Below, in pieces: positions 4,284 to 48,284 of a DNA stretch of 64,000 bases. Position 1 is the stretch's first letter, and each line of letters begins with the position of its first letter. The DNA is from a phage, in the NCBI GenBank assembly GCA_025284135.1, contig GCA_025284135.1_3646.1. The stretch is one strand, 5' to 3'. Made by a program: the position numbers and the translations under genes. The notes under the pieces were generated by a model, which saw only the letters and a program-made list of their open reading frames with translations, was not told the origin of the DNA and made no database searches.

Positions 4284-4350
4284 AAATTATCAACACAGGG
4301 GGTTGCAAAACCTCCTTTGGCGTGATAAAATAATCCACATGGGGAATAAT

Positions 4351-5747: not shown

Positions 5748-5767
5748 GACATTAACGGGGGAAATAA

Positions 5768-6154: not shown

Positions 6155-6205
6155 TAAGCCCTAAATTGTTCGGGAAAATATTTAAGTTTTACTTTGGAGA
6201 AATAA

Positions 6206-7216: not shown

Positions 7217-7240
7217 TCACTGATGTGATTCATCCCATAT

Positions 7241-7270
7241 GGGGAGGGGGTTCTCCCCCTCCCCTTTTTA
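7241..7270 (+). terminator. intrinsic terminator
   Basis: Perfect 10-bp stem GGGGAGGGGG-TTCT-CCCCCTCCCC followed by TTTTT. Confidence 0.8.
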
Positions 7271-7297
7271 CTTATTAGGGTTTAACAGGAGTGTCCC

Positions 7298-18624: not shown

Positions 18625-19341
18625 ATGGCTACGCTTTATAGTGATATATTGATGGACCCACAGACAGGCGATTTGGCGATAGACAAAGGTCTTGAGTTGA
18701 TAGATTCAAACCAGGTGAGTCTGCGCCAGCGCTTGTGGATGAGATTTAATACGTGGAAGGGGAGCTGGTACTTTGACGAGTTGTTTGGCTTTCCTTATAT
18801 GGACTTTCTCAGTAAGAAGGTCATGAAGACTGTTCTTGATAACAAGATTATGGAAGTGGCAAGACAAGAGCCGGATGTGCTAAACATCATAAACTTCCAG
18901 TCTACCATGGATCGAAGATCGAGAACATACCAAGCGTTCTTTGAGGTTGTTACCAAAGAGAACGAGATTGTAAGGCTGGCTTTCGTAGGTCTTGATCAGT
19001 TTACCTACCCACAGCCTGATTCTGGGACAACCTCTCTCTGTGATGATGAAGGTTGGATTAAGTGGGCTAATAAACTGTACTACCTGATCAACTTCAGATT
19101 GCCTAGAACCGGAGATGCCACATGGTGGAACCAGTATGCTGGTCCTGAGATGGAAAACCCGATCCCTGTAGGCTCTCTGTTGACTCAGGATAAAGATCTG
19201 CTGATGACCGAGGCAGAACAAACCATTAACCGCAATACCTGGACGCTTGCTCCAGATGAGCGCGAATACTCTGGTGTTATTGCTACCTCCAATGATGAGG
19301 CTATTGCCAACCAGTCTGGTCGTGCTATTGATGTTAACTAA
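18625..19341 (+). CDS. baseplate wedge protein (gp25/gpW- or XkdS-like, putative)
   Basis: 238 aa; position directly after spike; N-terminal pattern D-x-x-TGDL...SLRQRL...TWKGSWYFDELFGFP compatible with gp25/W-like small wedge proteins. Confidence 0.35.
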   Translation: MATLYSDILMDPQTGDLAIDKGLELIDSNQVSLRQRLWMRFNTWKGSWYFDELFGFPYMDFLSKKVMKTVLDNKIMEVARQEPDVLNIINFQSTMDRRSRTYQAFFEVVTKENEIVRLAFVGLDQFTYPQPDSGTTSLCDDEGWIKWANKLYYLINFRLPRTGDATWWNQYAGPEMENPIPVGSLLTQDKDLLMTEAEQTINRNTWTLAPDEREYSGVIATSNDEAIANQSGRAIDVN

Positions 19342-19350
19342 GGAGAAATC

Positions 19351-20019
19351 ATGGCTGTAGCTTATCCTACAATACCAATTCCAGATCTTGAAGATGCAGA
19401 AACAGTCCTGAGTGATGACTTCTTGGTTGTCAACCAGACTGATGGGACAAGAAAGGCTAAGATTGATGATGTTGTCAACGATCTCAGCATTACTAAAATA
19501 GTCTATTTCACAGAGGGTGGTTATCTTAAGAGCAAGAAGGACTTTGCTTATGATCCAGAGACCAAGCGCTACTACACGTGGAACGGGGACTATCCTAAAA
19601 TAATCCTCCCAGACTCCACTGTAGAGGGTGCTGGGGGTGTGTCTGCAAATGCCTGGTCTGTTTTTGGTGAGCTTGCTGCAACTTCTTCTGGCAGAATAGT
19701 TGATTACGGATCTATCGGTGGTCAGCTTAATATGGATCTTGAAGTTGCGGATACCTTTAAGGTTCGACTAACTTCAAATACCACAATCTCTTTTGAAAAT
19801 CAAACAGAAGGTCTTGAAGGGGTGGCGAGAACTATAACCGTATGCATTACTCAGACCTCTGGCGGCAACAAAGTCTATTGGCCCGGCAATGTTAAATGGT
19901 CCTACGGAAGAGATCCTATCCTAACATTTACAGCTGGTGCAACAGACATTTTCAAGTTGGAAACCTACGACAACGGGTTAACTTGGTACGGGGCACTGAT
20001 TATCGCAGGAGCTATCTAA
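19351..20019 (+). CDS. tail fibre/tailspike anchor-domain protein
   Basis: 222 aa; N-terminal ~100 aa clearly paralogous to the N-terminus of the 1270-aa fibre at 22655 (DDFLVVNQTDGTRKAKIDDVV...FTEGGYLKSKKDFAY vs DDYLVVQQPDLTRRVKIGDVV...FKEGGKLNGPMDFAY). Confidence 0.5.
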   Translation: MAVAYPTIPIPDLEDAETVLSDDFLVVNQTDGTRKAKIDDVVNDLSITKIVYFTEGGYLKSKKDFAYDPETKRYYTWNGDYPKIILPDSTVEGAGGVSANAWSVFGELAATSSGRIVDYGSIGGQLNMDLEVADTFKVRLTSNTTISFENQTEGLEGVARTITVCITQTSGGNKVYWPGNVKWSYGRDPILTFTAGATDIFKLETYDNGLTWYGALIIAGAI

Positions 20020-20020
20020 G

Positions 20021-22618
20021 ATGCGTATTCAACATAACATTGATAACGTATTTCAGATGATTGAGGGGCACAGGAAGTGCCTCGATAACAACACAGGTAT
20101 TACCAACACCCCTACACAAAATAAGCTAGTAAACCCTGATGGTCTTATAGCTGCAGGGTGGGCAGGTAATAAGATAAATAATGATTGGGCAATGCATGAG
20201 TCCCAAGCTGTGTTGATTCTGGGATACATTGAAGCATACAGGGCATCGAAAAGCGATTTCTATCTGGATAGGGCAAAAGATGCTTGGGAAGCTTACAATA
20301 GTCATCTTCTGGGTGCATATGCAGTAGAAAGTAAAATGCAAAGATTGTCCCACTACCCTCTATCTACAGATGGGGTTCCATCACATGGTGGGTTTAAAGA
20401 TGTGGTGGTGTCTTTTACCAATGGTAGAGGAAAAATCCCAGCTGGATCTCCGACATGGGGAGAATACCTGGACAAGGCATTCCAAGCGTATAACGGTGTG
20501 TTAGGAAGAAACACGGTAGACTCCGATGTTTACGGTGGCACAGATGCTGACCCAGATTGGACAACATCCGGATTAAGTTGGTGGGTTGAGTGGTATATAG
20601 CATGGGATGGTAACCGCTATTGGGCTAACGGTAGCATAGCCGACAGTGGTCATACGTCTGTAGAGTTCGGCACAATCCAATTACAAGATAAGGGTGTTAC
20701 AGGAAGCCACAAGGTAACCTATTGTGTAAGATTACCTCAAGAGCAGGGTGGATCGGTGATACCTGCAGGATCCCCTGTAATTGTGAATCCTATAAACGTG
20801 GTTGCAGACAATCAAGCCCCAGAGTTGGACGGGGAAGAAATGTGGTGTGACGCTTGTTATCAACTCTACACCTTGACAGGTGAGGAAAAGTATTACACCG
20901 CGTTTAAACAGTCTTACAACAAGTTGCTTAATTTCAGTGATATAAACGCCTACGACAAACTGTTTAGAAAGACCACGTTGATTAAGGCACCATTTACAGA
21001 TGGTGCTTGTCTTGTTGCAGGAACAGTTCCTGTCATGAGCAGGGATAGTGACGGGTATATCAATTTTAGAATGAACGCACGCCAGCCTTGCGAAATAATT
21101 CAAAAAGGGACTACATACAAAATAGGCAGAGATGCTGAAATTGTTATGAATTTCGGAGGAGAAGGGGTTCTGTTCCAGCCACATTTCATCCTTAATGATG
21201 GCAACAATAACAAAAAACAGTACAGGATAGGTGTTCCTTTTGGGGGTGCAGAGGTAACAGAAATAGTTGCCAAGGTTACTGATTTCGTAGAGGTAGTTGG
21301 TAAAGACGGTAATCCGTACCTCTTACCTAAAGAGGAAAACATTGCCGTGAGCGGTGGTGCCAGTGTTAGTATGCAGTACGATACCGACATTTACAACCAC
21401 TCTGACAACTTCACCCGTTGTAATATAGCAAGGGGCAAAGTAACTTTCAATTTTGGAAGAGAGATTTCTTTAAACTCAGTAACTTATCGATCAGATGATG
21501 AGATGGTAAGGGTCAAATTTCTTGACAAAGACAGGTGGTTATGGTATGCTGATCTATATGCCACTAATGGACAATGGATAACAGAAACTCTTACTCTAGG
21601 AGATTTCAAACTAGATCCGACACAACCTCATCACACCGAAGAAGAGATTAAACCTTTCTTTGCTAATCCTAAGGGGCTCACCTCTGTAGATTTCAGCCTA
21701 AGCGACAGGCAGATAGGTAATGGCTTGTTTGACCTATATTGCGTCAACACACTGCCACAATTTTATATTGCAGATAGAGATGCTTATCTAATCTGGTTTA
21801 GCGTATGGATGGCAAGCAAGACAGAATCAACCGCTAGGGTTGGCGATTGCTATGTCAGAAACTACAAGCAAGGCGCATACAGGCACACACCGGGTGTGTT
21901 CCCTGCCGGAAAGGTGATAGATAAGGAAAACTATCTCTTAGAGGAAAAGCCAAATTGGCCCTACCCTGGCATGCAATATCCAGCAATCTACTGCATGGGT
22001 GCAGAAAACATAGATCGCCATAGATTGTCAAATACAATAGGCTTTCTGTATGACGCTCAAGTCTGGTATAATAATACATTTAAGACAGAGGGTCCAGTTG
22101 CCTCGCGTTATGTATGGCAGAGAGGTAATGAAGGGCTGACTGGTTGGTGGGAGATGGTAGATAACTCTAAACTCCAGTCAAGATCTTTTGTTGCTGCGTG
22201 CCGCACAATATATGAGCTCAAGAAACATAAAGAACCTGTTGATGAAAGACTATTCCTGTTCTGCCAGAAATGGGCATGGTTCCTCAACAGATTCCAGTCA
22301 TCTCATTCAGGAAATCTGCCCACAGACTTTAACACCTCTGGGGGATATTCTTATCAAGACAGAGGAGACAGGATGTGGGTGGTAGGTGAATGGCTTGCAG
22401 GTTGCTGCTGGCTAGGTCTGTGCGGGTATTCAGAGACAATACCTCAAATAGATATTGTTGTGGAAGCCTGTGTGAAGCTACTGCAAAAGCACCACTTCAT
22501 TAATGGGGATAATATTTTAAACGGCTGCTGGGCAGTTTCTGATCCGGTTGGCTATCACTCTGGCGAAATCCTTCGCGGTCTGGGCCTTTATGCTCAATAC
22601 CGTGGATTGTACCTTTAA
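20021..22618 (+). CDS. large tail-associated protein, possibly enzymatic (depolymerase-like?)
   Basis: 865 aa; Trp/Tyr-rich, no fibre-like repeats; start 2 nt after the anchor-domain gene; function inferred from context only. Confidence 0.3.
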   Translation: MRIQHNIDNVFQMIEGHRKCLDNNTGITNTPTQNKLVNPDGLIAAGWAGNKINNDWAMHESQAVLILGYIEAYRASKSDFYLDRAKDAWEAYNSHLLGAYAVESKMQRLSHYPLSTDGVPSHGGFKDVVVSFTNGRGKIPAGSPTWGEYLDKAFQAYNGVLGRNTVDSDVYGGTDADPDWTTSGLSWWVEWYIAWDGNRYWANGSIADSGHTSVEFGTIQLQDKGVTGSHKVTYCVRLPQEQGGSVIPAGSPVIVNPINVVADNQAPELDGEEMWCDACYQLYTLTGEEKYYTAFKQSYNKLLNFSDINAYDKLFRKTTLIKAPFTDGACLVAGTVPVMSRDSDGYINFRMNARQPCEIIQKGTTYKIGRDAEIVMNFGGEGVLFQPHFILNDGNNNKKQYRIGVPFGGAEVTEIVAKVTDFVEVVGKDGNPYLLPKEENIAVSGGASVSMQYDTDIYNHSDNFTRCNIARGKVTFNFGREISLNSVTYRSDDEMVRVKFLDKDRWLWYADLYATNGQWITETLTLGDFKLDPTQPHHTEEEIKPFFANPKGLTSVDFSLSDRQIGNGLFDLYCVNTLPQFYIADRDAYLIWFSVWMASKTESTARVGDCYVRNYKQGAYRHTPGVFPAGKVIDKENYLLEEKPNWPYPGMQYPAIYCMGAENIDRHRLSNTIGFLYDAQVWYNNTFKTEGPVASRYVWQRGNEGLTGWWEMVDNSKLQSRSFVAACRTIYELKKHKEPVDERLFLFCQKWAWFLNRFQSSHSGNLPTDFNTSGGYSYQDRGDRMWVVGEWLAGCCWLGLCGYSETIPQIDIVVEACVKLLQKHHFINGDNILNGCWAVSDPVGYHSGEILRGLGLYAQYRGLYL

Positions 22619-22622
22619 CATA

Positions 22623-22644
22623 GGGGGGCTGTTTGCCCCCTTTC
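22623..22644 (+). terminator. weak intrinsic terminator/attenuator
   Basis: GGGGGGC-TGTTT-GCCCCC hairpin followed by only TTT. Confidence 0.35.
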
Positions 22645-22654
22645 AGGAGAAAGA

Positions 22655-25600
22655 ATGGCTGATATTAAAGTTGTCAGAATTGAATCTCTTCCTGCCACTA
22701 CCGCAGTGACAGAGGATGATTACCTGGTTGTTCAACAACCAGACCTGACCCGTCGTGTAAAAATTGGCGATGTTGTCCATGTTGATGGGACTGTTTCTCA
22801 TGTAATCTCCTTTAAGGAAGGTGGTAAGTTAAACGGCCCAATGGATTTTGCCTACTTCGAAGAGGAAGACCTCTACCTGCGTTGGAAAGGCGAATTTCCG
22901 CACACTGTTCCTGCACTATCTTCACCGTACTCCGATGGCGGGATTACTGACGCTGCATGGATGGTATATACAGACCCGTCATTAAGGGAGGAGCTGGAAT
23001 CTACCATTGGCGCATCTATGATCATGACAGCCGAAGGGCAGTCTGTCCAGGATGTAATGGATGTTACTGTTCAGACAGCTAACGATGCCAAAGCACTTGC
23101 ACAGCGTGTAGATTTTGGTACAGTGCACACTGTAGGCGATGTTATTCACCTTGATAACTTTGTTGGCCCTGCAGTTATTGAAGAGGGAAGAACTACCAAC
23201 TACCCTTCTGCAGCAGCTGGTGAAAAATTTCTGAACGGTGTGGTATCTCGTCGTGATACTACAACTGTTGATGGTATTTTCCGTGGCGCTACCTCCGGAG
23301 CCATGTATACCATTGCAGTAACCAACGGTGTAGCAACAACAAAAAGAATAGCACTTCGTGATGAATTTAAACGCCTGGAGGCAAACAACCCAACAAGAAC
23401 AGTTATCCGTGCTGGAGATGATTTAAACACGGCAGGGTACTTGCAGCTTGATGCAACAGGCCGTTGGGGTATGTGGAACCAACAAACAGCCTCGTGGCAA
23501 CCTCTTGCTATAGAGCAAGGCGGTACAGGGGCCAGAGATGCCGCTGGAGTCCGTATCAATATCGGGGCTTTCTATAAGCAACGTGCAGCCCTTGAGCCAA
23601 ATTTCAATATCAATAACTTGACTGGTAATCAGGATGGTGTATACTACCAGCCGATGACTGCTTATGCAACTGAGGCAAATGGTTATCCTGCAGGTTCTGG
23701 TGCTGGTCACTTGATTGTTTGGCAGAACAATGCTAACGGTGGTACAGGTTGTCGTCAGGAATACTATCCATTCTCTAACGTAGATGTTTGGTATTTGAGA
23801 ACCTATCAGGCCAATACAAACCAGTGGACTGCATGGCAGCCGATGGTCAGACCTCGTAACGATGATACCTTTAGATCGCACATCGGCCTTGGTAAAAACA
23901 ACTCACCAGCCTTCGGGCACCTTTACTTAGCTCAATACTCTGGAGATGTCAAATCGGCCTCAGGTATTCTCCATGGAGATAAATATAACACTGATGGTGT
24001 TCTTGAGCATGGCTATAGGATCTATTCTGAGGTAAGAAACGACAATAAGGCTTGGTTGACAATCCACCTGCACAAAGGTGCAAAAGGATCTGAAACCCAT
24101 AGATATTTAGGCTTCCGTGAGGATGGGGTCTTAGATTGTCCTAAATATATGCAGGTTGGTGATCTGAACGGTCAGATGGCAAACTGGGGACTTGGAGAAT
24201 GGATCCGCAGTTCAGGAGCAGAAAGAGGTTTCTGGGGATCTAAGAAAGCCGCCAAGATGGTCATCTGGGATGGCGGTATGGACGAGCAAGGTGAAGGAAC
24301 GCTTGAGTGGGGTGTTTATAACAACCGGAAAGCCAAATGGGAACCACTACCGATAGCTTGTGGTGGTACCAGTGCCAGGACTGTAGGGGATGCTCAAGCA
24401 CAATTCAGAATCCCTCTGGCAGCAGGTACTAGACCATATGTAAACCTGCCTAGAACTGCAGCTATGCAGGACGGTAAGTATTATCCTATTATCGTCAGAA
24501 CTGACCCCAACTTTGCAGCAACTATCGGGACAGATTTAACCATTGTCACCAGATCTTCTTCTGGCGGCGACCCAATGAACTGTGCTACACTACAGTGTCA
24601 CTACAGAACTGGTGGCTGGACAGACAGAGGTGATTCTTTCCAAGGGGTTATTAATTTCTACCAAAACGAGAAAGCAATCCTCGGATGTGTATCTCCAACC
24701 AGAGGTAAGCAGGAGTATGTTGCATTCTATGTAGAGGCACGTGCATTCCCTGTTACAGTATATGCTGGTGCTACTGTAATAGAAGTGTCAACCAGGGAGG
24801 TTGATTGGCAGGTAGGCAACGTGACAGGTAACCAAGATGGTGTCAAGTTCTGTGCTCCTCTGGCATCTGCAGATTTGAGTCTTGCAATCAAAGGTGATGA
24901 TGTAACAAACACCAGACCTCTGGTTGAGTTCAAAGGAACATCAGGTTTCTACACTGGTGGTGGAACTATGTGGCACTACCTGGGGACTCCTGAACGCTAT
25001 GCAGTGATGAGCAAAATGAACATGCCTAAAGTCGAGCTTTGGGCAGACGGTATTGACTACATTTGTCCTGGTAGTCAGACCACTAGAAAAGCACTGTTCT
25101 CTAACGCAGGGTTCCAAGCTGCATCGGAAGGAACAGAGGATCTGATCAACAACACCTTTACCTCTAAATGTGGTAATGGTGCAAGACTGCAAGGCCAGGC
25201 AGAGTTCAGATCTACTCCGGAAGCTGGTCAAGTTATCGTTCGCGATGTTGTAGGTACAGCTCATAAGTTCTACAATTTCAACAAAGACGGCACATTTTTC
25301 CCTCCTGGAGGCTATGTTTGCCAGACAGGCGCTGACTGGAACAATCAGTTTGGTAATACAAACCCCTCCAAGATAATGGCTGGCAATGTCAACGGGCCGG
25401 AAGGTTCGATGGTTGTTGGAGGACTGTCTGTGGCGTTTTCTGGAAACTATGCTTTCCAAATGGCTGGTCGCCTTGATCAGTTATACACCAGATCTATCGA
25501 GGGTGGTAACCATAGGGCATGGAACAAAGTTATTCAGCACCGTGGTCAAGGTCTGGGGACAGAAGACCTTAATAACTACGATGGTAGCCGTGAAGGTTTC

Positions 25601-26467
25601 TATCACCAGGGTTCAAACGCTGACGCACTTGTAATAGCTCGTCACTACCCTGCTCCGTACGCTGGTACGCTGCTTGTTTACAAAAACACAGCCAACAGAC
25701 CGCAAGGTTGTGTGCAGGAATACATTACCTATTTTGGTGACAGATATACTCGTGCTGGTAACTACGTTGGCGATGTCTTTACTTGGGAAGAATGGAGACA
25801 CGATGCTGGTAAGGGCATTCAGTTAAGACCTAATTACAATTTCGGTGAAAACAGTACTCAGCTGGAAATTCATGTTGGTGCTAATGGTCTTCCATCCAAC
25901 GCCGATAACTTACCTACCAACAGTGCTATACTCCATTATTGGGGTAACGGCAGTGCAGGGACTCGTCCAAACGTGTTAGAGTTTAAGGTTCTTGACGAGT
26001 CTCAATCGGCTTATGTATGGCATTGCGGTACCTTGCCGGATAAATCAAGATATCTTTCTGTAAACGGTGCTGTGAATTGCACATCTGTCAATCAGAGTTC
26101 TGACAGAGACCTGAAAGATAACATATCTGTTATTCCTGATGCGTTAGAAGCTATCCGGAAGATGAAGGGTTATACTTACACTCTTAAAGAGAACGGTATG
26201 CCTTATGCAGGTGTTATAGCACAAGAAGTGCTTGAAGCGTTGCCGGAAGCAGTTAGCTCTTTCGTGCAAAGAAAGGAAATCCCAAACCCTGATCAAGATG
26301 GAACTCCTTTGATAACAGAGGAAAGATTCTACAGCGTGGATTACGCAGCCGTAACAGGCTTGCTTGTCCAGGTTTGCAGGGAACAGGACGATAAAATAAC
26401 CGCCCTTGAGGAGCAGGTTAAAAAATTGACGGAGGTTGTTACTGGGTTGCAAGAGAAACTGAAGTAA
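22655..26467 (+). CDS. tail fibre/tailspike protein with C-terminal intramolecular chaperone (peptidase S74-like) domain
   Basis: 1270 aa; N-terminal anchor domain shared with 19351 gene; C-terminal 122 aa (SDRDLKDNISVIPDALEAIRKMKGYTYTLKENG...AGVIAQEVLEALPEAV...coiled coil) matches the auto-cleaving chaperone domain of endosialidases and T5 L-shaped fibres. Confidence 0.8.
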   Translation: MADIKVVRIESLPATTAVTEDDYLVVQQPDLTRRVKIGDVVHVDGTVSHVISFKEGGKLNGPMDFAYFEEEDLYLRWKGEFPHTVPALSSPYSDGGITDAAWMVYTDPSLREELESTIGASMIMTAEGQSVQDVMDVTVQTANDAKALAQRVDFGTVHTVGDVIHLDNFVGPAVIEEGRTTNYPSAAAGEKFLNGVVSRRDTTTVDGIFRGATSGAMYTIAVTNGVATTKRIALRDEFKRLEANNPTRTVIRAGDDLNTAGYLQLDATGRWGMWNQQTASWQPLAIEQGGTGARDAAGVRINIGAFYKQRAALEPNFNINNLTGNQDGVYYQPMTAYATEANGYPAGSGAGHLIVWQNNANGGTGCRQEYYPFSNVDVWYLRTYQANTNQWTAWQPMVRPRNDDTFRSHIGLGKNNSPAFGHLYLAQYSGDVKSASGILHGDKYNTDGVLEHGYRIYSEVRNDNKAWLTIHLHKGAKGSETHRYLGFREDGVLDCPKYMQVGDLNGQMANWGLGEWIRSSGAERGFWGSKKAAKMVIWDGGMDEQGEGTLEWGVYNNRKAKWEPLPIACGGTSARTVGDAQAQFRIPLAAGTRPYVNLPRTAAMQDGKYYPIIVRTDPNFAATIGTDLTIVTRSSSGGDPMNCATLQCHYRTGGWTDRGDSFQGVINFYQNEKAILGCVSPTRGKQEYVAFYVEARAFPVTVYAGATVIEVSTREVDWQVGNVTGNQDGVKFCAPLASADLSLAIKGDDVTNTRPLVEFKGTSGFYTGGGTMWHYLGTPERYAVMSKMNMPKVELWADGIDYICPGSQTTRKALFSNAGFQAASEGTEDLINNTFTSKCGNGARLQGQAEFRSTPEAGQVIVRDVVGTAHKFYNFNKDGTFFPPGGYVCQTGADWNNQFGNTNPSKIMAGNVNGPEGSMVVGGLSVAFSGNYAFQMAGRLDQLYTRSIEGGNHRAWNKVIQHRGQGLGTEDLNNYDGSREGFYHQGSNADALVIARHYPAPYAGTLLVYKNTANRPQGCVQEYITYFGDRYTRAGNYVGDVFTWEEWRHDAGKGIQLRPNYNFGENSTQLEIHVGANGLPSNADNLPTNSAILHYWGNGSAGTRPNVLEFKVLDESQSAYVWHCGTLPDKSRYLSVNGAVNCTSVNQSSDRDLKDNISVIPDALEAIRKMKGYTYTLKENGMPYAGVIAQEVLEALPEAVSSFVQRKEIPNPDQDGTPLITEERFYSVDYAAVTGLLVQVCREQDDKITALEEQVKKLTEVVTGLQEKLK
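26096..26467 (+). other. intramolecular chaperone auto-processing domain (S74-like) within fibre gene
   Basis: S-D-x-x-L-K signature (QSSDRDLK) with predicted cleavage before the Ser; ends in a coiled-coil segment. Confidence 0.7.
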
Positions 26468-26474
26468 CTGTTTT

Positions 26475-26504
26475 GCCCTCGCTTCGGCGGGGGCTTTTTG
26501 TTTG
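26475..26504 (+). terminator. intrinsic terminator (UUCG tetraloop)
   Basis: GCCCTCGC-TTCG-GCGGGGGC followed by TTTTT. Confidence 0.75.
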
Positions 26505-26506
26505 TA

Positions 26507-26535
26507 TTGCGTATTAACTCAAAATCTGGTAAAAT
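26507..26535 (+). promoter_or_regulatory. sigma70-type promoter, extended -10 (TTGCGT-N17-TGgTAAAAT)
   Basis: Immediately downstream of terminator; shared GGTAAAATA motif. Confidence 0.5.
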
Positions 26536-26566
26536 AACTATCATGATTGTTTAACCTGGAGGCACA

Positions 26567-27157
26567 ATGTTTTTATGGGAAAGGCCTAGATACCTTCCAG
26601 ATATTAGATTGGAGCTGCTGGCAGATATTGTTACGTTTAAAAGTCCGTTTACAGGTAAAACGCAAAAAGTAACCTATGCCACACCTAACTGGAAAGGCAC
26701 TTTGACGGTTTCCAATATCAGCGAGTCACAGTTGCTAGAGCTTAAGAGCTTTGTTGATCAGGTGTATAAAGATGGAAACATCTTTCTTATTAAAACTTAC
26801 GGTCACTCAGTAACAGCTAATGAGCCAATCGCCCTTGGGCCTACTGGTAACGATGATTTTTTGAGGACGGTTGGGTGGGAGCCAAACAGAGACATAGCCA
26901 GAGTTGGGGATAAAATATCTGTCAATGATGAATTGAAAGTGGTAACAGCTCCAGTGCGTAGCGATGGTGTTGGGTCTGCTGTTATAAGCATATCTCCAAG
27001 ACTTAGAAAACCTATTGCCGCAGGGGACACTATGAAGATAATAACTCAATCCCCGAAGGGTAGGTTTCATATCAGAGATATTTATAAAATTAAGCAAAAA
27101 GTCGATGCTATGCAAAAAGGTGATAATATAGTTATCAACTTCTTTGAGGATTTCTAA
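26567..27157 (+). CDS. minor tail protein, lambda gpM-like (putative)
   Basis: 196 aa; segment WKGTLTVSNISESQLLELKSFVDQVYKDGNIFL resembles lambda gpM TYSVTLSVPREEATVLESFLEEHGGWKSFLW (recalled from memory); first gene of an M-L-K-J-like set. Confidence 0.45.
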   Translation: MFLWERPRYLPDIRLELLADIVTFKSPFTGKTQKVTYATPNWKGTLTVSNISESQLLELKSFVDQVYKDGNIFLIKTYGHSVTANEPIALGPTGNDDFLRTVGWEPNRDIARVGDKISVNDELKVVTAPVRSDGVGSAVISISPRLRKPIAAGDTMKIITQSPKGRFHIRDIYKIKQKVDAMQKGDNIVINFFEDF

Positions 27158-27710
27158 GATGATCAGAGCGCCATTAGATAATTTATTTCTTGAAAAGCTG
27201 GAGCTTGATGGTGTTGAGATCTTAATTGCTGCAAAGCTGGAGCTACCGACAGGAACTGTCAGGGTGTGCTCAGGCACTGGTGTTGTAGTAATTGAGGGGC
27301 AACATTTTATAGGGATAGGTGGGTCAGCAACATTAACCGCTGTGTCTGAGAAAGATGCCACCAACTTCGGATCTGTGGTAGCGACATTGAACGGGTTTGA
27401 TCCTAAGTATGTGGGTGATCTGCTGAAGACTGAGTATTCTGGTTGTCGTGCCACGTTGTACATTACCGCTATGGAGAATGGTCTGCCTGTTACAACTAAT
27501 GGCTTGTTTGACGGCCTTATAACAGATATGGCTATTCAGACGGGTGAGAATAGCGCTTTGTCCATATCCATCTCTTCCATCTTCAACAGTTGGTTAAGAG
27601 GTTTTCCTTATCGGTACACGGAGGAAAGCCACAGCTCAAGAAACGATAACGACAGATTTTTTAAATATGTGGATCAGGTGGCGAGCCGCCCGATCATTTG
27701 GGAGGTTTAA
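27144..27710 (+). CDS. minor tail protein, lambda gpL-like (putative)
   Basis: 188 aa; position between M-like and K-like genes; loose pattern similarity to gpL N-terminal region; overlaps neighbours by a few codons. Confidence 0.4.
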   Translation: MRISKMIRAPLDNLFLEKLELDGVEILIAAKLELPTGTVRVCSGTGVVVIEGQHFIGIGGSATLTAVSEKDATNFGSVVATLNGFDPKYVGDLLKTEYSGCRATLYITAMENGLPVTTNGLFDGLITDMAIQTGENSALSISISSIFNSWLRGFPYRYTEESHSSRNDNDRFFKYVDQVASRPIIWEV

Positions 27711-28135
27711 TGAGCACACATCCTCGTCTAGTGGACTGGCAAGAAAGATTGTGGAAAGTGTTTGACGAAGAGGCCACCATACCTTTTGAATGGGGATTCC
27801 ACGATTGTTGCACCTTTGCAGCTAAGTGTGTTGATGCCCAATACGGAACAGATTTTCTTTCTAACTTCGAAGGAACGTATAAAACAGAGTTGGAAAGCAA
27901 AAGATGGTGCATGCTCCGTTTCAAAACCACACACCTGCCTACTATTTTTGATCTCTTTATGACTCGGCTGGATACTCCTAAACAGGTTCAGCGTGGAGAT
28001 ATTGTCATTTTCGAAGGTCTGAACGGCCTCACCGCCGGTGTGTTCTGGAACAACCAGATTTGGGCGAAAGGTGATAAAGGGGTCTTTATGTTCGATATGA
28101 AAGATTCTATCGTTGTTGATGTCTGGAGGTATTAA
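27698..28135 (+). CDS. tail assembly protein with NlpC/P60-like motifs (lambda gpK-like, putative)
   Basis: 145 aa; candidate catalytic Cys in WGFHDCCTF and downstream GDIVIFEG...GVFW pattern typical of NlpC/P60 folds; directly upstream of J-like gene. Confidence 0.45.
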   Translation: MGGLMSTHPRLVDWQERLWKVFDEEATIPFEWGFHDCCTFAAKCVDAQYGTDFLSNFEGTYKTELESKRWCMLRFKTTHLPTIFDLFMTRLDTPKQVQRGDIVIFEGLNGLTAGVFWNNQIWAKGDKGVFMFDMKDSIVVDVWRY

Positions 28136-31100
28136 TGCCAATTGCAATGATTGATAACATCGTTGCTTCTGCAAGATCTTCAAGTTATGACTGGAACGCA
28201 TCCAAGGCAGCTCTGGCTGACAGCCTGAACACTGTTACCACCAGAACTCTGGATAAGATTTTTGAGGGCAACAAATCTTACAGAAGTCAGCAAGATAGAC
28301 AAAAGCTTCTCAGATCTTCTGCTGCACCCTGCTCTGTAGTGTATGGAAAGACACGCACATCTGGATTGCTTGCGTTTTTGGAGCAGGATAGAGACAAAAC
28401 CCTCCATTGTGCTATTGTTCTTGCCAATCACCCTCTGGAAGGTATAGAAGATATACTTATCGACGGTAATCCGATTTCCTCGTATGGAGATCTGGTATCG
28501 TGGGAGCTACATAACGACAGAAAAACATCTGATCCTTTCATGGGTACACACTGCCCATCATGGTCACCAGACATGATAGGTAGAGGGATCAGTTGGCTAC
28601 GTGCCAGCTTCAGGTTTGACCCTAACAAGTTTCCTTTTGGGTTGCCAAACGTTACACTTGTCAAGGTTGGTAAAAAATGCTATGATCCTCGTATCAGTAA
28701 AGAGGTGTATACCAATAACGCGGCCTTGGTGATTCTGGACTATTTAAGAACGTACCTTAAATGTCCTGACGAAACCATCAACTGGGAGTCCTTCAAGGAG
28801 GCTGCCAACATATGCGATGAGGCGGTAAAAAACGCTGACGGAACCAGTGAGCGCCGTTACACAATTAATGGCGAGTTCGATATGGATGAGGCTCCAGCAA
28901 GTATTATGGCAGAAATGCTGAAAGCTTGTGGAGCAGATCTCAGCTATGTAGCTGGTAAGTATGGTTTGCTGGTCGGTGCATATTATGGTCCGGCAACAAT
29001 GACACTGAGTGAGGATTGTGTCTGCGGTGAGGTAAAGATCTATCCGGAAGCCTCATTTGACAAAAGATCCAACACAATAACTGGCAGATTCACTAGTCCG
29101 ACCAAAGGGTATTCTGAAACAGATTTTCCATCAGTGTTTGTCCCAGAGTGGATAGAGAAGGATGGAGAAAGAAAGATAATCGATATAGACTATCGCTTTG
29201 TTACCAGTCCTTATCAAGCTCAACGTGTTTCTGCAATCTTCCTAAGACGTGCCAGAGCTGGCAGGATTATTGAAGTCACCTGCAATATGCGAGGTTTTAA
29301 ATTTAAGCCTGGCCGTTACGTTACAATGAATCTTCCAAGTATTGGTATAGTAGGCCAAGAAATGAGGGTTCTTGAATGGGAGTTCACCAAAAAGGGTGGT
29401 GTCAAGGTAAAACTTCGTCAAGATGCTAAAGAGTGGAATGATGCCACAGGGCAACTTCCGGATTCTGGTGATGTAGATATTCCGATATCTCCATCTGGTG
29501 TAGCTCAACCGCAAAACTTCAGATACTCCGTCCTCCAAGCTGGGGAAATAACTCACGGTGTTCTGGCTTGGGACAACGTTGGGACTTACGCTCAAAATAT
29601 TGTGCAGGTAAGAAAGAACGGAGAGATTGTTTGGACAGCACAGACAGTTGAGCAGTTTGTCCGAGTAGAAGGCTTGACCAAGGGGTCATACACAGCAACC
29701 GTGGTTGCAACATCTTATAAAGGTGGTGTATCTCCAGAAGCGTACTGCGAGTTTAACATTCAGGCACCTGAAGCTCCTGTTTCTGTAGAGGTTAAGCAGG
29801 GATACTTTGCTATCACCTTGATTCCACACAGCAGGGATTTAGCAAGTGTAAGCACCCAGTATGACTTTTGGACATCTGGTATGACAAGGTTGCCCGACAC
29901 CAGCGATGCAACCGTTACTTCAAACGCCACCCGTATGGGTGTTGGTTCAACTTGGACATCCGAAGGTCTGCAGAACGATAAGGTTTATTATTGGTATATT
30001 CGAACCACAAACGCTTTTGGTAGCTCTCAGTTTGTAGAGTGTGCTGCACGCTGCTATACCTCCATTGAGGATTTGATGCCTCAGATAGATGCTGAATTCA
30101 AAAAGACAGAAACTTATAAAGAGTTGATGAGCACTTTGGATTCCTCTATTGAAGAGGTTGAAAATCGTGTCACAGAACTTAACAGGTACATGGATGGTAG
30201 AGTTGACGAGGCTTTTGACCACATGGAAGGTGAGTTCTCTAGAGTAGACAAGCTGTATGCTCAGTTGGGAGATAGGGTTGGAATATTCATCCAAGAAACC
30301 CACGACAACTTCCAGGACGTTAATGGAACGCTTACCACTCTAGATCAGAAACTGGTAGCCACTCAGAACAAGTTTGCAGATGATCTTTCTAAAGAAAGTG
30401 GCAAGCTTGCTTCTCTAATCCAGACCACTAACAAAGCTACAACCGATCTGTTAAATCAGAAAACTGAAGCTTTGGACGAGAAGATTGTTTCAACCAGGGG
30501 TGAGTTGGAAGATGCTTTAGCGCAGGAAAGCTCTGAGCTGAACTCCCTGATTGTATCAACCAATAAAACGACTACAGATCTCCTTAATCGGAAAACCGAG
30601 GCTTTAGACAATAAGCTGACGGCAACGAAAGGTGAGTTGACCAACAATCTGCAGAATGAGAGTGCTAAACTATCGTCCTTGATTGAGTCAACCAACAAAT
30701 CCACCACTGATCTTCTTAATAAGAAAACAGAGGCGTTGGATGAAAAACTGGTTGCTGCACAGGGCGAGTTGACTGAGCAGATCGGAGATGTTGAAAAAGG
30801 CTATCTGGCTGGTGATAAGAGCCTAGAGGGCAAGTTGAATACTCAAAGATCTGAGTTGGATGCGAGCATTCTGAGCACTAACCAGGCCACTGTGGACTTG
30901 CTGAACAGAACTTCTGAGACTCTTGACCAGAAGATTAGCCAGACCAACGCCACAGTGTCCAAAAACTACACCACGCTTGATGGTAAGATAAACACCGCCA
31001 AGTCTGATCTTAATACGTTGATTTCTACCACCAACAAGGCCACAACTGACCTGTTGAATCAGAAAACGGCAGCTTTGACTGAGCAGTTAACCACTGCTAA

Positions 31101-32280
31101 AGGGCAGATTACAACCAACACCAATAATATTACTGGGTTGGACAATAAGCTGACTCAGACTAAGAAAGATTTGTCTGCGAATATTTCTGAAACTAATAAC
31201 GCCACTGTTGATCTGATTAACGGCACAGCGTCAGCTATTCGTCAAGAACTTGCTGTTGCTAAGCAGGAGATCATTGATGGTGTTGGTGATGTGTCCGAGA
31301 TCAGGGCTGCAGTAGCTACAACAGCTAAGGCTGTAACCGACTTGGAGGGTAAAGTAAGTGCTCAATGGGGCACAAAAATACAGGTAGACTCCGCAGGGAA
31401 TAAATATGTTGCAGGTATCCAGTTGGGGATGGAAGGGTCTGGGGGCCAAGTTCAATCCTACTTCATGGTTAGTGCAAACAATTTTGCGGTATACAACCCT
31501 GGCAATGGAACAGCAACCCTTGCTTTTGCAATCAAGAACAACCAAGCGTTCTTGAAAGACGCTTTTATAGAGAACGGGACGATTTCATCTGCCAAGATCG
31601 CACAAGAAATCTCGTCAAACAACTACGATGGCAACGGGTACCATAAATACGGTTGGTATATTAACAAGAACGGGCACGCCCAATTTATGGATGTGTGGGT
31701 GAAAGGCAACATCAACGCTAGTTCTGGTAACTTCACAGGGGCAGTTAACGCCACTAGTGGTACCTTCCGTGGGGATGTTTATGCCAATAATGGTAGCTTT
31801 AGAGGCACCATAGATGCAACCGGAGGTACCTTCCGTGGTCGTGTAGAAGCTTCTGTTATCCGTGCTAACCAGTTCGAAGGTGCAATTGTTGCGCACAGGA
31901 CTTATGGGGATTGTGCTCCAGTATATAACTCCCGGCAAAGGGTTTGCCGTTGGAGGTGGAGATACGTAGATAACGTTTCAGGTCAGGGTAAGAACGTAAC
32001 ATTCTTCTTTAAACTGAATGGTACTCTTGCCAGCTCCCAGCTCAACGTTTGGATAGCCGGACATCAAATCCTTGCAGGTAAGAAGTACGGAAACGACAAC
32101 AACGGTATGTGTGCGGTAGGGATAACAGGTCTTGGTGAACAAACCATAGATATTGTTGTTGAAATCTACACACCATGGTCAACGTCTTCTGTAACAGGGG
32201 TCGCAATATCCTGTCCTACTGTTGTGGTAAGCCGTTCTAACTCAAGCTTCCAGGGACCTTGGAACGAGTCTCACGACTAA
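28135..32280 (+). CDS. central tail fibre / tip attachment protein, lambda gpJ-like, with inserted coiled-coil repeat array
   Basis: 1381 aa; N-terminal HPLEGIEDILIDGNPIS and AALVILDYLRTYLKCPDETINWESFKEAANICDEAV, FN3-like GYFAITLIPH...YYWYIRTTNAFGSSQFVE, and C-terminal KYVAGIQLGMEGSGGQVQSYFMVSANNFAVYNPGNG...AFLKDAFI all parallel recalled lambda gpJ segments. Confidence 0.75.
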   Translation: MPIAMIDNIVASARSSSYDWNASKAALADSLNTVTTRTLDKIFEGNKSYRSQQDRQKLLRSSAAPCSVVYGKTRTSGLLAFLEQDRDKTLHCAIVLANHPLEGIEDILIDGNPISSYGDLVSWELHNDRKTSDPFMGTHCPSWSPDMIGRGISWLRASFRFDPNKFPFGLPNVTLVKVGKKCYDPRISKEVYTNNAALVILDYLRTYLKCPDETINWESFKEAANICDEAVKNADGTSERRYTINGEFDMDEAPASIMAEMLKACGADLSYVAGKYGLLVGAYYGPATMTLSEDCVCGEVKIYPEASFDKRSNTITGRFTSPTKGYSETDFPSVFVPEWIEKDGERKIIDIDYRFVTSPYQAQRVSAIFLRRARAGRIIEVTCNMRGFKFKPGRYVTMNLPSIGIVGQEMRVLEWEFTKKGGVKVKLRQDAKEWNDATGQLPDSGDVDIPISPSGVAQPQNFRYSVLQAGEITHGVLAWDNVGTYAQNIVQVRKNGEIVWTAQTVEQFVRVEGLTKGSYTATVVATSYKGGVSPEAYCEFNIQAPEAPVSVEVKQGYFAITLIPHSRDLASVSTQYDFWTSGMTRLPDTSDATVTSNATRMGVGSTWTSEGLQNDKVYYWYIRTTNAFGSSQFVECAARCYTSIEDLMPQIDAEFKKTETYKELMSTLDSSIEEVENRVTELNRYMDGRVDEAFDHMEGEFSRVDKLYAQLGDRVGIFIQETHDNFQDVNGTLTTLDQKLVATQNKFADDLSKESGKLASLIQTTNKATTDLLNQKTEALDEKIVSTRGELEDALAQESSELNSLIVSTNKTTTDLLNRKTEALDNKLTATKGELTNNLQNESAKLSSLIESTNKSTTDLLNKKTEALDEKLVAAQGELTEQIGDVEKGYLAGDKSLEGKLNTQRSELDASILSTNQATVDLLNRTSETLDQKISQTNATVSKNYTTLDGKINTAKSDLNTLISTTNKATTDLLNQKTAALTEQLTTAKGQITTNTNNITGLDNKLTQTKKDLSANISETNNATVDLINGTASAIRQELAVAKQEIIDGVGDVSEIRAAVATTAKAVTDLEGKVSAQWGTKIQVDSAGNKYVAGIQLGMEGSGGQVQSYFMVSANNFAVYNPGNGTATLAFAIKNNQAFLKDAFIENGTISSAKIAQEISSNNYDGNGYHKYGWYINKNGHAQFMDVWVKGNINASSGNFTGAVNATSGTFRGDVYANNGSFRGTIDATGGTFRGRVEASVIRANQFEGAIVAHRTYGDCAPVYNSRQRVCRWRWRYVDNVSGQGKNVTFFFKLNGTLASSQLNVWIAGHQILAGKKYGNDNNGMCAVGITGLGEQTIDIVVEIYTPWSTSSVTGVAISCPTVVVSRSNSSFQGPWNESHD
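30394..31266 (+). repeat. in-frame array of ~6 diverged ~132-nt (44-aa) coiled-coil repeats inside J-like gene
   Basis: Protein repeats of the form ES(G/S/A)KL(A/N/S)SLIxSTNKxTTDLLNxKTEALDxKL; first three units exactly 132 nt apart (30394, 30526, 30658); DNA diverged mostly at synonymous positions. Confidence 0.7.
31720..31851 (+). repeat. four tandem 33-nt (11-aa) Gly-rich repeats inside J-like gene
   Basis: SSGNFTGAVNA / TSGTFRGDVYA / NNGSFRGTIDA / TGGTFRGRVEA. Confidence 0.7.
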
Positions 32281-32286
32281 CCTTTA

Positions 32287-32315
32287 AAGCCCCGCTTCGG
32301 CGGGGTTTATTTTTA
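32287..32315 (+). terminator. intrinsic terminator (UUCG tetraloop)
   Basis: CCCCGC-TTCG-GCGGGG followed by TTTATTTTTAT. Confidence 0.8.
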
Positions 32316-32323
32316 TGCTCAGA

Positions 32324-32352
32324 TTGACTATTGTTACAAAATTTGGTAAAAT
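32324..32352 (+). promoter_or_regulatory. sigma70-type promoter, extended -10 (TTGACT-N17-TGgTAAAAT)
   Basis: Hexamers with 17-nt spacer directly after terminator. Confidence 0.55.
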
Positions 32353-32385
32353 ACCTTGTAGAGATTTTCATACCGGAGGAGTGAC

Positions 32386-33876
32386 GTGGCTAAGTATGGA
32401 TTGACAGAGGCTGGTTTCGTTATACCAACCCTAAATGACCTAATCGTTGAAACTAAGCAAAGCCTGATCCGTGCTTTTGGCGAAAACTTCAACGTACAGA
32501 GTAACTCCGTTGCAGATAAGCTGACCACTATCTTCAACGAGCGAGAGTATCAACTTATTCTTATGGCAGCATCTGTATATGCATCACAGACGCTGTATGG
32601 GGCAGAAGGTATTTACCTAGATGAGCTTCTTGGAAGACAGGGTATTTACCGAAGAGGCCGTTCTAAATCATCAGGTACCTGCCAGTTGACAATCAACACA
32701 ACTGTGCCGTACAATATGATTTATGATTCCAAAACTTATACGCTGGACAGTGGCAACTTTGTTCTTAGCAACGATGTGCAAGTAGCAGGGAATCTTATTG
32801 CTCACAGAATAAATGCTCCAGACCTAAGGATTGGGAAATACAACTTCCAAATTACCAACCAGACAGATGGAAGTATCAAAACAAAAAGCCTGGTTTTAAC
32901 AGATAAGTCTCTGGACTCTTCTGATTTGCCAAGCTTTTACGGAGAGATTAAGCAATTCATTGTCGATAATACAACTCTGTTGAACGACGATTTGATTCAA
33001 ATCGATATGTTGACAGGAACGTTGTGGATAGGGTACAATTCGAATCTTGATCAGGTTGGACTTAATAGTAGGGTAGATTTCAGAGTATCCCCGATTGTAG
33101 GGGAAAGAACTATCACTCTAGATGTTATCGCTAACGAGGCTGGTGAGCTGTCAAGGGAGGCAGAAACCGTGACAACAATGTCGCCTACCCCCAGCGGATT
33201 TATTAAGCTTACCAACCGAGAAAGATTCAATGAGGGAAGGGATGTTGAAAAAGACTCAGAGTATCGCTTAAGAGCTTCCAGCACAAAACAGTTAACATCG
33301 AAGGCTACCCGTCCTGCAATCCTTAGCGCTGTAAGCGAGGTAAAAGGTGTTGAGAAAGTGAGAGTGTTCTCCAACAACACCGATAAAACTGATGCTAAAG
33401 GTATACCTCCTTACAAGTTCCAAGTGGTTGTGTTTGGTGGTGCAACGGAGGACATTTGCCAAGCACTTTACCAAACTATAGCCTGTACGAACAGGACTTA
33501 TGGTAATATTTTCTACGATATCGCTACATCTGACGGTCAAACTGAAAGAATTTATTACTCCAGGGCAAATACCTACCGCCTAGATGTAAGAATTACCTAT
33601 TCCGGCGCTGCGCTTTCCACAACCGAAAAAGATGCCATTGTAGAGGCTCTTTTGCAGGTTGTTAACGGACTTGATGTTGCAGATACGTTGTACAATATCC
33701 AATTGGTCGGTGCTGCATCCGCTGCTGTGTCGATAGGTAGATTTAATAGACTGGTAATTCAAGTTAAACCAGTAGGAGCTTCTGATGAAGCTTACACGAC
33801 AAACGATATTGTTGCGAACATGACCGAGGTGTTTGACCTCGACGAAAGTAATATAACTTTCCAACAAACTATTTAA
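32386..33876 (+). CDS. baseplate wedge protein, Baseplate_J-like (P2 gpJ / Mu gp47-like, putative)
   Basis: 496 aa; GTG start with GGAGG SD; DSEYRLRA motif matching the D-x-D-Y-R-L-R signature recalled from P2 gpJ, followed by alternating beta-strand-like segments. Confidence 0.5.
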   Translation: MAKYGLTEAGFVIPTLNDLIVETKQSLIRAFGENFNVQSNSVADKLTTIFNEREYQLILMAASVYASQTLYGAEGIYLDELLGRQGIYRRGRSKSSGTCQLTINTTVPYNMIYDSKTYTLDSGNFVLSNDVQVAGNLIAHRINAPDLRIGKYNFQITNQTDGSIKTKSLVLTDKSLDSSDLPSFYGEIKQFIVDNTTLLNDDLIQIDMLTGTLWIGYNSNLDQVGLNSRVDFRVSPIVGERTITLDVIANEAGELSREAETVTTMSPTPSGFIKLTNRERFNEGRDVEKDSEYRLRASSTKQLTSKATRPAILSAVSEVKGVEKVRVFSNNTDKTDAKGIPPYKFQVVVFGGATEDICQALYQTIACTNRTYGNIFYDIATSDGQTERIYYSRANTYRLDVRITYSGAALSTTEKDAIVEALLQVVNGLDVADTLYNIQLVGAASAAVSIGRFNRLVIQVKPVGASDEAYTTNDIVANMTEVFDLDESNITFQQTI

Positions 33877-33887: not shown

Positions 33888-34574
33888 ATGGCAGAGATTA
33901 AGTCGGATGTTAACCACATCCACACTCTGCCAGATTTTGTTCAGGGAGGTCTTGACTACCTACCTGGAGATTTTCTGGCTGAGAAGGTTAATTTAGTCAC
34001 ATTCTTAACCGTATACCTTAAAAGGTTGGAGGATGTTGATAAGATGCTGGTAGGTTTGGCTGAAGGAAGATTGCTTAACAATGCCAGCGGAAGATACCTT
34101 GACGAAGTTGGTAATCAACTTGGTATTCTTAGGAATGGACTTTCAGATGCTGATTTTCGTGCCACACTAATTATTCAGCAGGCCGCAGCATCAAGGGGCG
34201 GGACTCGCGAAGATGTCATCTCCACCTTGCGACAATTGTTCGGAAGAGACAATTTCGATACGTGGAAAGGAGACAACTTCAGGTTTGACATAAATATTAG
34301 AAAAACTTGCTTTGACATATTGCAGTCTATCGATCAGATCTTAGATATGCTACCATTACCTTGTCATTTGCGTCTTACAGAATCGCAAGGGCAAGCTTTT
34401 GGTTTTGAAGGGGACTCTACAGCTCTTGGCTTCGGATCAGTGTGGGAAGAAAACCAATTCGGAGTTGGTGGGCTGGCTACTTTGCTATATGTTCCTGACG
34501 TAAGACCTGATTGGGACACCACAACCATTTATTGTGAAAGTATTACAGTAAACGCAACTAGACAGGAGGGTTAA
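33888..34574 (+). CDS. baseplate protein, XkdU / P2 gpI-like (putative)
   Basis: 228 aa; N-terminal YLPGDFLAEKVNLVTFLTVYLKRLEDVDKMLVGLAEGRLL resembles the tail protein I/XkdU family motif; position directly after J-like wedge gene. Confidence 0.45.
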   Translation: MAEIKSDVNHIHTLPDFVQGGLDYLPGDFLAEKVNLVTFLTVYLKRLEDVDKMLVGLAEGRLLNNASGRYLDEVGNQLGILRNGLSDADFRATLIIQQAAASRGGTREDVISTLRQLFGRDNFDTWKGDNFRFDINIRKTCFDILQSIDQILDMLPLPCHLRLTESQGQAFGFEGDSTALGFGSVWEENQFGVGGLATLLYVPDVRPDWDTTTIYCESITVNATRQEG

Positions 34575-47463: not shown

Positions 47464-47473
47464 CAGGAGGCAA

Positions 47474-47506
47474 ATAAAAAGGGGCCGTTTGGCCCCTTTC
47501 TTTTTA
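47474..47506. terminator. bidirectional intrinsic terminator between convergent transcription units
   Basis: GGGGCC-GTTT-GGCCCC hairpin flanked by A-run upstream and T-run downstream. Confidence 0.8.
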
Positions 47507-47509
47507 TAA

Positions 47510-47710: not shown

Positions 47711-47713
47711 TTC

Positions 47714-48275: not shown

Positions 48276-48284
48276 TAAAATCGA

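Follow-up and report, generated by a model that had tools for sequence, protein, structure and literature searches.

Receptor-binding devices built of an adaptor plus an enzyme are well known from phages K1E, K1-5 and SP6 and from G7C and CBA120. In the podovirus adaptor systems, gp37 of K1E, K1-5 and SP6 carries endosialidase or lyase spikes, and a KP32-type anchor-branch arrangement is also known; the N-terminal domain family PF18668 (Tail_spike_N) was defined on CBA120 TSP1 and G7C gp66. The adaptor arrangement of K1E/K1-5 has been described (PMC13450770). Here we analyse a locus in a 64,000-nucleotide (nt) stretch of phage DNA (contig GCA_025284135.1_3646.1; the whole stretch is called the window below), in which three open reading frames (ORFs) on the plus strand, as are all features of the locus given below, correspond in rV5 numbering to gp43 (222 amino acids (aa); 19,351-20,019), gp42 (865 aa; 20,021-22,618) and gp41 (1270 aa; 22,655-26,467), a known locus. 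The window comes, to judge from its sequence, from an rV5-like Vequintavirus (E. coli phage type), because by megablast this 7.1-kb region matches 124 phage records, with the best matches in Escherichia phages BP9, VB-EcoM-WM (98.0%) and EduardKellenberger/Bas59 (97.7%) and with rV5 itself ~93% identical. All three proteins have been found in rV5 virions by mass spectrometry (PMC3606486).

We think it probable that the region encodes two receptor-binding devices which share one type of attachment module. The first would be gp41, a long lateral tail fibre anchored by its ~105-aa N-terminal module and assisted in its folding by an S74 chaperone domain at the C-terminus; the second would be gp43 together with gp42, as adaptor and cargo. 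Here gp43 would serve as a short adaptor or short fibre, probably a trimer, whose N-terminus attaches it to the baseplate or an adjacent fibre and whose C-terminal beta-sandwich holds gp42, an anchor-less barrel with beta-rich, probably glycan-binding inserts. As the distal glycan-binding or -cleaving subunit, gp42 would give a unit that probably recognises a conserved glycan on the cell surface and may also cleave it. The homologies, the domain make-up, the modelled fold, the synteny and the co-divergence are shown by the analysis; the contact between gp43 and gp42, the number of subunits, the place where the unit docks on the baseplate, any catalysis and its substrate are inferred.

The attachment module and the proposed docking domain

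The first ~100 residues of gp43 and gp41 are paralogous, as the original prediction, made from the DNA letters and their translations, had proposed: in a single BLASTP comparison, aa 8-105 of gp43 and aa 7-105 of gp41 show 38% identity and 55% positives over 99 aa (E = 3e-18). Near the start of each protein, inside residues 1-105, PF18668 scores above its Pfam gathering threshold of 25 bits, with 41 bits for aa 51-105 of gp43 and 42.1 bits for aa 46-103 of gp41, and the shared module is thus a domain already catalogued in Pfam. In gp43 it covers aa 1-110 (19,351-19,680), an anchor motif of ~50 aa followed by the PF18668 core; its paralogue in gp41 is encoded at 22,655-22,984. The motif of the first ~45 aa is common to gp43, to gp140 of muut and phi92 and to phi92 gp143, and the sequence matches of gp43 in the PDB land on the N-terminal regions of CBA120 TSP1, TSP3 and TSP4 and of G7C gp63.1. 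A hidden Markov model (HMM) of both N-termini found no third copy among the six-frame ORFs of the 64-kb window (next E = 1.6), and ten other tail proteins of the window are without the module. Presumably gp43 and gp41 dock at the same site. Of the two proteins of the proposed second device, gp43 has such a particle-binding N-terminus and gp42 has none.

At its other end gp41, which matches phrog_6578, bears the S74 domain that had been read from its sequence, PF13884 (Peptidase_S74; gathering threshold 22 bits) matching residues 1149-1200 with 50.9 bits. This intramolecular chaperone domain (26,099-26,464) begins with SDRDLK (aa 1149-1154), in which Ser and Lys lie five residues apart, a spacing that we take to fit the Ser-Lys catalytic dyad of S74. 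Cryo-electron microscopy (cryo-EM) of Bas49 and Bas54, both Vequintavirinae, placed three classes of baseplate fibre, one of which is modular and ends in an S74 domain or a lectin-like head (PMC12143355); gp41 probably belongs to that modular class.

The rest of gp43, aa ~115-222 (19,693-20,016), is a conserved domain, predicted to be a beta-sandwich, which we propose as the dock for gp42. It belongs to no Pfam family, and its profile finds no match among PDB sequences. As a whole gp43 is 98% identical to Bas59_0024 and to rV5 gp43 and matches phrog_7760 ('tail fiber protein', E = 2e-119), and its C-terminal half has PHROG matches at the C-terminal ends of several families of small 'tail fiber' proteins. 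By BLASTP the domain is related to the C-termini of proteins whose genes immediately precede a gp42-like gene in 8 other phages (E 1e-8 to 4e-28). By tblastn 527 phage records contain it and 525 contain gp42, with nearly equal counts genus by genus (domain/gp42: Escherichia 240/243, Salmonella 101/101, Vibrio 60/62, Erwinia 33/33, Cronobacter 12/12, Aeromonas 7/7). The two are also neighbours: in 9 of 10 independent unfused lineages inspected, the domain lies directly upstream of a gp42-like gene. Besides the window type, these are Justusliebigvirus muut (phi92 type), Rosemountvirus SE13, Kolesnikvirus phiEa104, the podoviruses PhiAC505 of Aeromonas and Kaonashi of Serratia, a 157-kb Vibrio phage, Achromobacter phage JWF and a Burkholderia vietnamiensis prophage; the tenth is Roseobacter phage CRP-603. 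At the junctions the two genes overlap by up to 8 nt or stand up to 12 nt apart and are mostly translationally coupled, and a like junction of domain and gp42 start is seen in a GC-rich metagenome contig. The Burkholderia protein is recovered by the HMM of the C-terminal domain at E = 3e-20 though it was left out of the building of that model.

The upstream proteins begin with halves that are mutually unrelated and match the type of phage -- PF18668 in the window, PF03906 (the T7 tail-fibre N-terminus) in the podoviruses, in SE13 an Ala/Glu-rich stretch that is probably a coiled coil, a 473-aa protein with a SPRY domain in the Burkholderia prophage and, in gp140 of muut (157 aa) and phi92, the ~45-aa anchor motif only. 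The more alike two C-terminal domains are, the more alike are the large proteins that go with them (Pearson/Mantel r = 0.80, p ~ 2e-4), a correlation not seen with the anchors (Spearman rho = 0.19); the domain co-diverges with the gp42-like protein and the anchors do not, and the recombination boundary therefore lies inside the small protein, between anchor and C-terminal domain. T7-like genomes have the pair at the canonical place of tail-fibre genes, with the internal core protein gene before it and the holin/terminase genes after it; a stub of 270-280 aa is the only T7-type fibre gene there, in a structural module without any other fibre-sized gene. With the stub as the only fibre gene, the gp42-like protein of these phages would have to make up the distal part that binds the receptor.

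Most of the 363 homologues of gp42, like gp42 itself, start straight at the barrel, without an anchor. Where such a module does have an N-terminal extension, this carries a recognisable virion anchor in cis: DUF7941 in Goslar gp92, the lambda gpM-like Phage_min_tail domain of a distal tail protein in 4 representatives, and Collar in 1. No partner with the C-terminal domain was found at the two fused loci checked, Goslar and a contig with the gpM fusion, the latter lying 3' of the tape-measure gene. The gp42-like module is thus either joined in cis to an anchor or encoded next to a protein with the domain, in trans, the pattern expected if the domain is its docking site. One 293-aa protein (P0067) had looked like a natural fusion of the gp42 N-terminus with a gp43-type domain; it is an artefact of a looped assembly, the 1.3-kb metagenome contig k127_26731778, in which the domain followed by the gp42 start occurs twice in a row. 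In Rosemountvirus SE13 the cassette (4336-7916 of that locus) lies outside the baseplate cluster, between the head-tail connector genes and the 'major tail protein' gene, and in that lineage the gp42-type cargo may be mounted at the neck.

Several results weigh against gp43 as the carrier of gp42. AlphaFold2 (AF2) gives the C-terminal domain as a beta-sandwich of moderate confidence, with a predicted local distance difference test (pLDDT) of ~55-81 per 10-residue block over aa 111-222, and places the N-terminal half (aa 1-114) below 50 with an alignment of 15 sequences. In the PDB the domain matches a single fold, that of a capsid spike from Pseudomonas phage Pa223 (9ny6_C; probability 1.00, E = 8e-4), for which we know of no cargo. 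In CRP-603 (3373-7502 of that locus) a 471-aa fibre ends in the domain and is followed by an unrelated, beta-rich protein of 902 aa, so the domain may not be strictly specific for gp42, or may be a mere fibre tip; the 902-aa protein may also be an alternative cargo. Finally, neither the Bas49/Bas54 cryo-EM (PMC12143355) nor that of phi92 (PMC13450770) placed gp43, gp42 or their counterparts.

The fold match to a free-standing spike and the different protein downstream in CRP-603 would suit a gp43 that is a self-sufficient short fibre or spike, with the C-terminal domain as its receptor-binding tip, with gp42 joining the baseplate alone through some unrecognised contact, and with the adjacency of the two genes reflecting a co-transferred host-range cassette. 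The authors of the phi92 study reported a like fold match for gp140 and took it as a candidate fibre by itself (PMC13450770). We regard such a self-sufficient gp43 as unlikely, in view of the lack of an anchor on the unfused gp42-like proteins, which begin at the barrel, and the recognisable anchor added in all the fused ones; of the T7-like stub, which at ~270 aa is very short for a receptor-binding protein and yet is the only fibre gene; and of the co-divergence of gp42 with the domain rather than the anchors, which points to a functional unit.

The adaptor-and-cargo arrangement of gp43 and gp42 agrees with one part of the original prediction, which had seen in the two a possible two-component tailspike: that gp42 rides on gp43 gains independent support from their co-occurrence, adjacency and correlated divergence, and a tailspike of the beta-helix kind does not fit, gp42 being modelled as a six-hairpin protein. 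That interpretation as a whole is supported, not proven. We would extend it only tentatively, to the view that the C-terminal domain and a gp42-type protein form a portable two-gene receptor-binding cassette, not recognised before, that fits any tail architecture once the N-terminal anchor of the small protein, and nothing else, is swapped; that this cassette is the sole receptor-binding protein in Autographiviridae; that gp42 represents a new glycoside hydrolase (GH) family acting on a conserved enterobacterial glycan; and that the gp140-gp141 pair explains unassigned density in phi92 and Vequintavirus baseplates, such as fibre II of phi92.

The fold of gp42 and its possible activity

The 865-aa gp42 is rich in Trp and other aromatic residues, as was noticed at first reading (27 Trp, 3.1%; 12.95% aromatic in all), and it is likewise devoid of an anchor domain or fibre repeats: it gives no Pfam match at E <= 0.1, no NCBIfam match and no fibre-repeat signature. 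A word-indexed search found 6 relatives, and an exhaustive profile search (E <= 0.001) the 363 cluster representatives already referred to. With an alignment of 40 sequences AF2 returned a confident model (pLDDT 88.8, predicted template modelling score 0.83), in which eleven long helices, within aa 2-23, 59-96, 269-305 and 663-864, form a complete (alpha/alpha)6 barrel broken by two beta-rich inserts (~99-266 and ~313-655). By this model gp42 is a six-hairpin, glycosidase-like protein outside the described sequence families. Barrel segment 1 (aa 1-98; 20,021-20,314) contains helices 2-23, 59-76 and 79-96, and is followed by insert 1 (aa 99-266; 20,315-20,818), which is known from its AF2 strands, as is insert 2. 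Segment 2 (aa 267-312; 20,819-20,956) contains helices 269-286 and 289-305, insert 2 (aa 313-655; 20,957-21,985) is a jelly-roll or beta-sandwich, possibly carbohydrate-binding, and segment 3 (aa 656-865; 21,986-22,615) supplies the last six helices.

Among homologues down to 17% identity, E60 in segment 1, D270 in segment 2 and D678 in segment 3 are near-invariant, and Q62 and Q680, in segments 1 and 3, are invariant; W699 and R721 are further residues marked in segment 3. E60, D270 and D678 are candidate catalytic residues, their conservation being compatible with a catalytic centre and no proof of one.

Against PDB sequences the profile of the gp42 family gives matches to single hairpins alone, at E ~ 1e-3, and the profile matches to cellobiose 2-epimerase and GH76 fall on its positions 41-108, in barrel segment 1. 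Two results add to those that weigh against the proposal, here on the side of enzymatic activity: no CAZy-type Pfam family is matched above threshold, with GH76 found below it in only 3 of 40 homologues (best E = 0.0034), so that membership of gp42 in a defined GH family is not supported, and some of the best fold matches of gp42 are epimerases, by which a hydrolase activity is not established. These leave some room for a gp42 that sits on gp43 as a lectin-like adhesin or structural platform and not as an enzyme, which seems to us doubtful, though more probable than a gp43 that does without gp42. Such a role would agree with the lack of any GH Pfam match above threshold and with the six-hairpin folds of some non-hydrolases, among them epimerases, terpene cyclases and VP4, a tail protein of SSV19. 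The Rosemountvirus-type homologue was likened to a hydrolase by HHpred, and no activity was reported for it (PMC7432712). The label 'glycosidase' already exists for phi92 gp141 (PMC5380687).

The position of gp42 directly downstream of a fibre-like gene, and the coupling of the two genes, resemble those of fibre-chaperone pairs, and gp42 could on that account be taken for an assembly chaperone of gp43, like the tail-fibre assembly proteins, with no function in the virion. This we consider most improbable. Far from lacking a fold and being absent from virions, the protein is modelled as a six-hairpin barrel of 865 aa with the look of an enzyme, its rV5 orthologue was found in the particle (PMC3606486), and the module is fused elsewhere to structural anchors (the lambda gpM-like distal tail protein and DUF7941).

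Insert 2 has a weak Foldseek likeness to beta domains of the Vip3 and vicilin types. It behaves as a mobile tail-fibre domain, because a stand-alone copy makes up part of a 502-aa 'putative proximal tail fiber' of Erwinia phage phiEa104 (4050-5558 of that locus; E = 2e-46); it is also found alone in phrog_23426. Conversely, the 537-aa homologue of Achromobacter phage JWF consists of the barrel segments only (profile positions 7-129 and 659-915), without either insert; in JWF (4165-6403 of that locus) it follows a 206-aa protein with the C-terminal domain, a minimal cassette. An overhang of 113 profile positions of phrog_2871 past the gp42 N-terminus had hinted at fused relatives; the closest homologues all share the start of gp42, and fused forms occur among distant relatives only.

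The locus, its conservation and its neighbours

The ORF coordinates and lengths given in the original prediction hold, and a plausible ribosome-binding site (RBS) precedes each of gp43 (AAGGAG), gp42 and gp41. The stop codon of gp43 (TAA, 20,017-20,019) and the ATG of gp42 (20,021) are separated by 1 nt -- the start had been described correctly as lying 2 nt after the small protein, that is, past the last base of the stop -- and the RBS of gp42 sits within the 3' end of gp43. The two genes are translationally coupled by this layout, and their proteins would therefore be made together. In the 36-nt gap between gp42 and gp41 the sequence reads as a GC-rich hairpin, GGGGGGC-tgtt-tGCCCCC followed by TTT (22,623-22,643), which scores under the threshold of the terminator scan; it may act as a weak terminator or attenuator, setting gp41 apart from gp43 and gp42, and by damping read-through may leave the two devices at unequal levels of expression. 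The Murica record carries a terminator annotation somewhere inside the matched 7.1 kb. A strong intrinsic terminator, an 8-bp stem with 7 G-C pairs followed by a T run, lies after gp41 at 26,475-26,494. The locus is flanked by a sheath-initiator-like gp44 on one side and by a lambda-like tail-tip block (gp40-gp37) on the other. The labels given by depositors range from 'hypothetical protein' upward and include 'sialidase domain protein' for gp43, 'lateral tail fiber protein with glycosidase domains' for gp42 and, in Bas59, 'lateral tail fiber protein' for gp41.

Across the genus the three genes are not equally steady. In all of the ~120 Vequintavirus records gp42 is at least 95% identical at the amino acid level (at least 99% in 58 of them), and by tblastn the C-terminal domain of gp43 reaches at least 95% in all but one, whereas gp41 varies, mostly between 80 and 90% aa identity. 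According to the BASEL study, only the largest fibre genes vary in such phages, which depend on the conserved glycans enterobacterial common antigen (ECA) and lipopolysaccharide core. The steadiness of gp42 and gp43 beside the variable gp41 therefore suggests that the unit probably targets a conserved glycan of the cell surface and not a strain-specific one; this genus-wide conservation of gp42, with the conserved receptor that it suggests, bears on the prediction of host range and on resistance. Among the records are 18 (MG0656xx, for example MG065646 and MG065647) labelled as Campylobacter phages with host C. jejuni; their locus has ~93% nucleotide identity to E. coli rV5-like phages, and the host labels look doubtful.

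The tail-tip block, at 26,567-32,280, lies within a myovirus baseplate cluster and encodes a Dit/gpM-like protein of 196 aa and proteins of 188, 145 and 1381 aa, the last of them J-like. The 145-aa protein occupies a position like that of lambda gpK and is called 'cell wall hydrolase' in the Bas59 annotation. The J-like protein has Phage_Tail_Tip and Ig_J domains, is ~100 aa longer than its rV5/Bas59 counterpart (1279 aa) and carries degenerate repeats of ~34 aa of the form 'STNKxTTDLLNxKTEALDxKL', for which a tandem repeat at the DNA level was not detected; none was found anywhere in 19,000-32,500. Further on, at 34,574-36,646, lies a 690-aa protein of the rV5 gp34/phi92 gp142 type, in which a Calx-beta domain is joined by two domains known from the non-contractile tail sheath protein family, the N-terminal one and the TIM barrel (PF23844, PF23845); this type has been tied to the recognition of ECA by the BASEL authors. 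After the tail-fibre cluster, at ~46,000-54,000 of the window, the GC skew goes negative and the long ORFs move to the minus strand, marking a switch in the direction of transcription.

Comparison with known systems

The rV5-like and phi92-like phages are common broad-host-range candidates for therapy and biocontrol. If gp43 does carry gp42, two conserved virion proteins would gain a testable assignment, the docking domain could be used to graft glycan-active heads onto other phage tails, and the six-hairpin family -- 363 representatives, with no Pfam model and no solved structure -- would become a set of candidate glycan-active enzymes. Three features appear to be undescribed in the literature searched: the link between the C-terminal domain and a six-hairpin module across morphotypes, a small protein split cleanly between an anchor that can be swapped and a docking domain that is conserved, and T7-like phages with this pair as their only fibre. 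Publications on ICP2 Gp23/Gp25, SD286 gp38, Ahp1, phi80-18 and phiTE do not deal with the gp43-gp42 module.

As in K1E, K1-5 and SP6, a small protein with a particle-binding N-terminus (PF03906 in the podoviral relatives) is accompanied here by a separate, anchor-less protein of glycan-degrading type. The cargo differs, being a predicted six-hairpin protein with beta inserts and not a trimeric beta-helix or beta-propeller spike, and so does the dock, a beta-sandwich of ~100 aa that has no Pfam family and whose only solved likeness is the Pa223 capsid spike fold; and the cassette, unlike those of K1E, K1-5 and SP6, also occurs in myoviruses, jumbo phages and prophages. With CBA120 (TSP1-4) and G7C (gp66/gp63.1) the locus shares the PF18668 N-termini and the presence of several receptor-binding proteins per virion with related attachment regions. 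Unlike those two phages, it shows no T4 gp10-like branching domain in gp43, gp42 or gp41 (Pfam, E <= 0.1), and in place of gp10-like branching, the second protein is proposed to attach through the C-terminal domain of gp43.

The closest relationships are to phi92 (Justusliebigvirus) and its 'Swiss army knife' apparatus, in which gp140, gp141 and gp143 are direct orthologues of the locus. phi92 gp141 is gp42-like, with 35% identity over its full length, and gp143 shares an N-terminal motif of ~40 aa with the muut-type gp140 (E = 4e-8). There are two differences: the muut orthologue of gp43 (157 aa, against 222) is without the PF18668 core, and the S74-bearing protein of phi92 is an endosialidase, whereas gp41 is a long fibre. 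In the phi92 cryo-EM structure, fibre I is on the wedge protein gp145 and fibre II, at the base of fibre I, was left without an assignment; gp141 was not considered (PMC13450770, 2026). This layout suggests where a gp140-gp141 pair may be located.

From the six-hairpin families GH8, GH76, GH88 and GH105 and the AGE-family epimerases, to which its sequence identity is 9-13%, gp42 is set apart by a barrel broken twice by beta-domains of ~170 and ~340 aa, and it belongs to none of them at the level of sequence. The 'evolved' Dit and other tail proteins carry modules that bind or cleave carbohydrate in cis, and in the lambda gpM-like proteins, the Collar fibres and Goslar gp92 (DUF7941 plus carbohydrate-binding and/or glycoside hydrolase-type domains) the gp42-like module is displayed on the virion as a C-terminal extension (bioRxiv 10.64898/2026.04.21.720040). 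Unlike the 'evolved' Dit and Goslar gp92, the window has it as a separate polypeptide, which therefore needs a partner in trans -- the part that gp43 would play.

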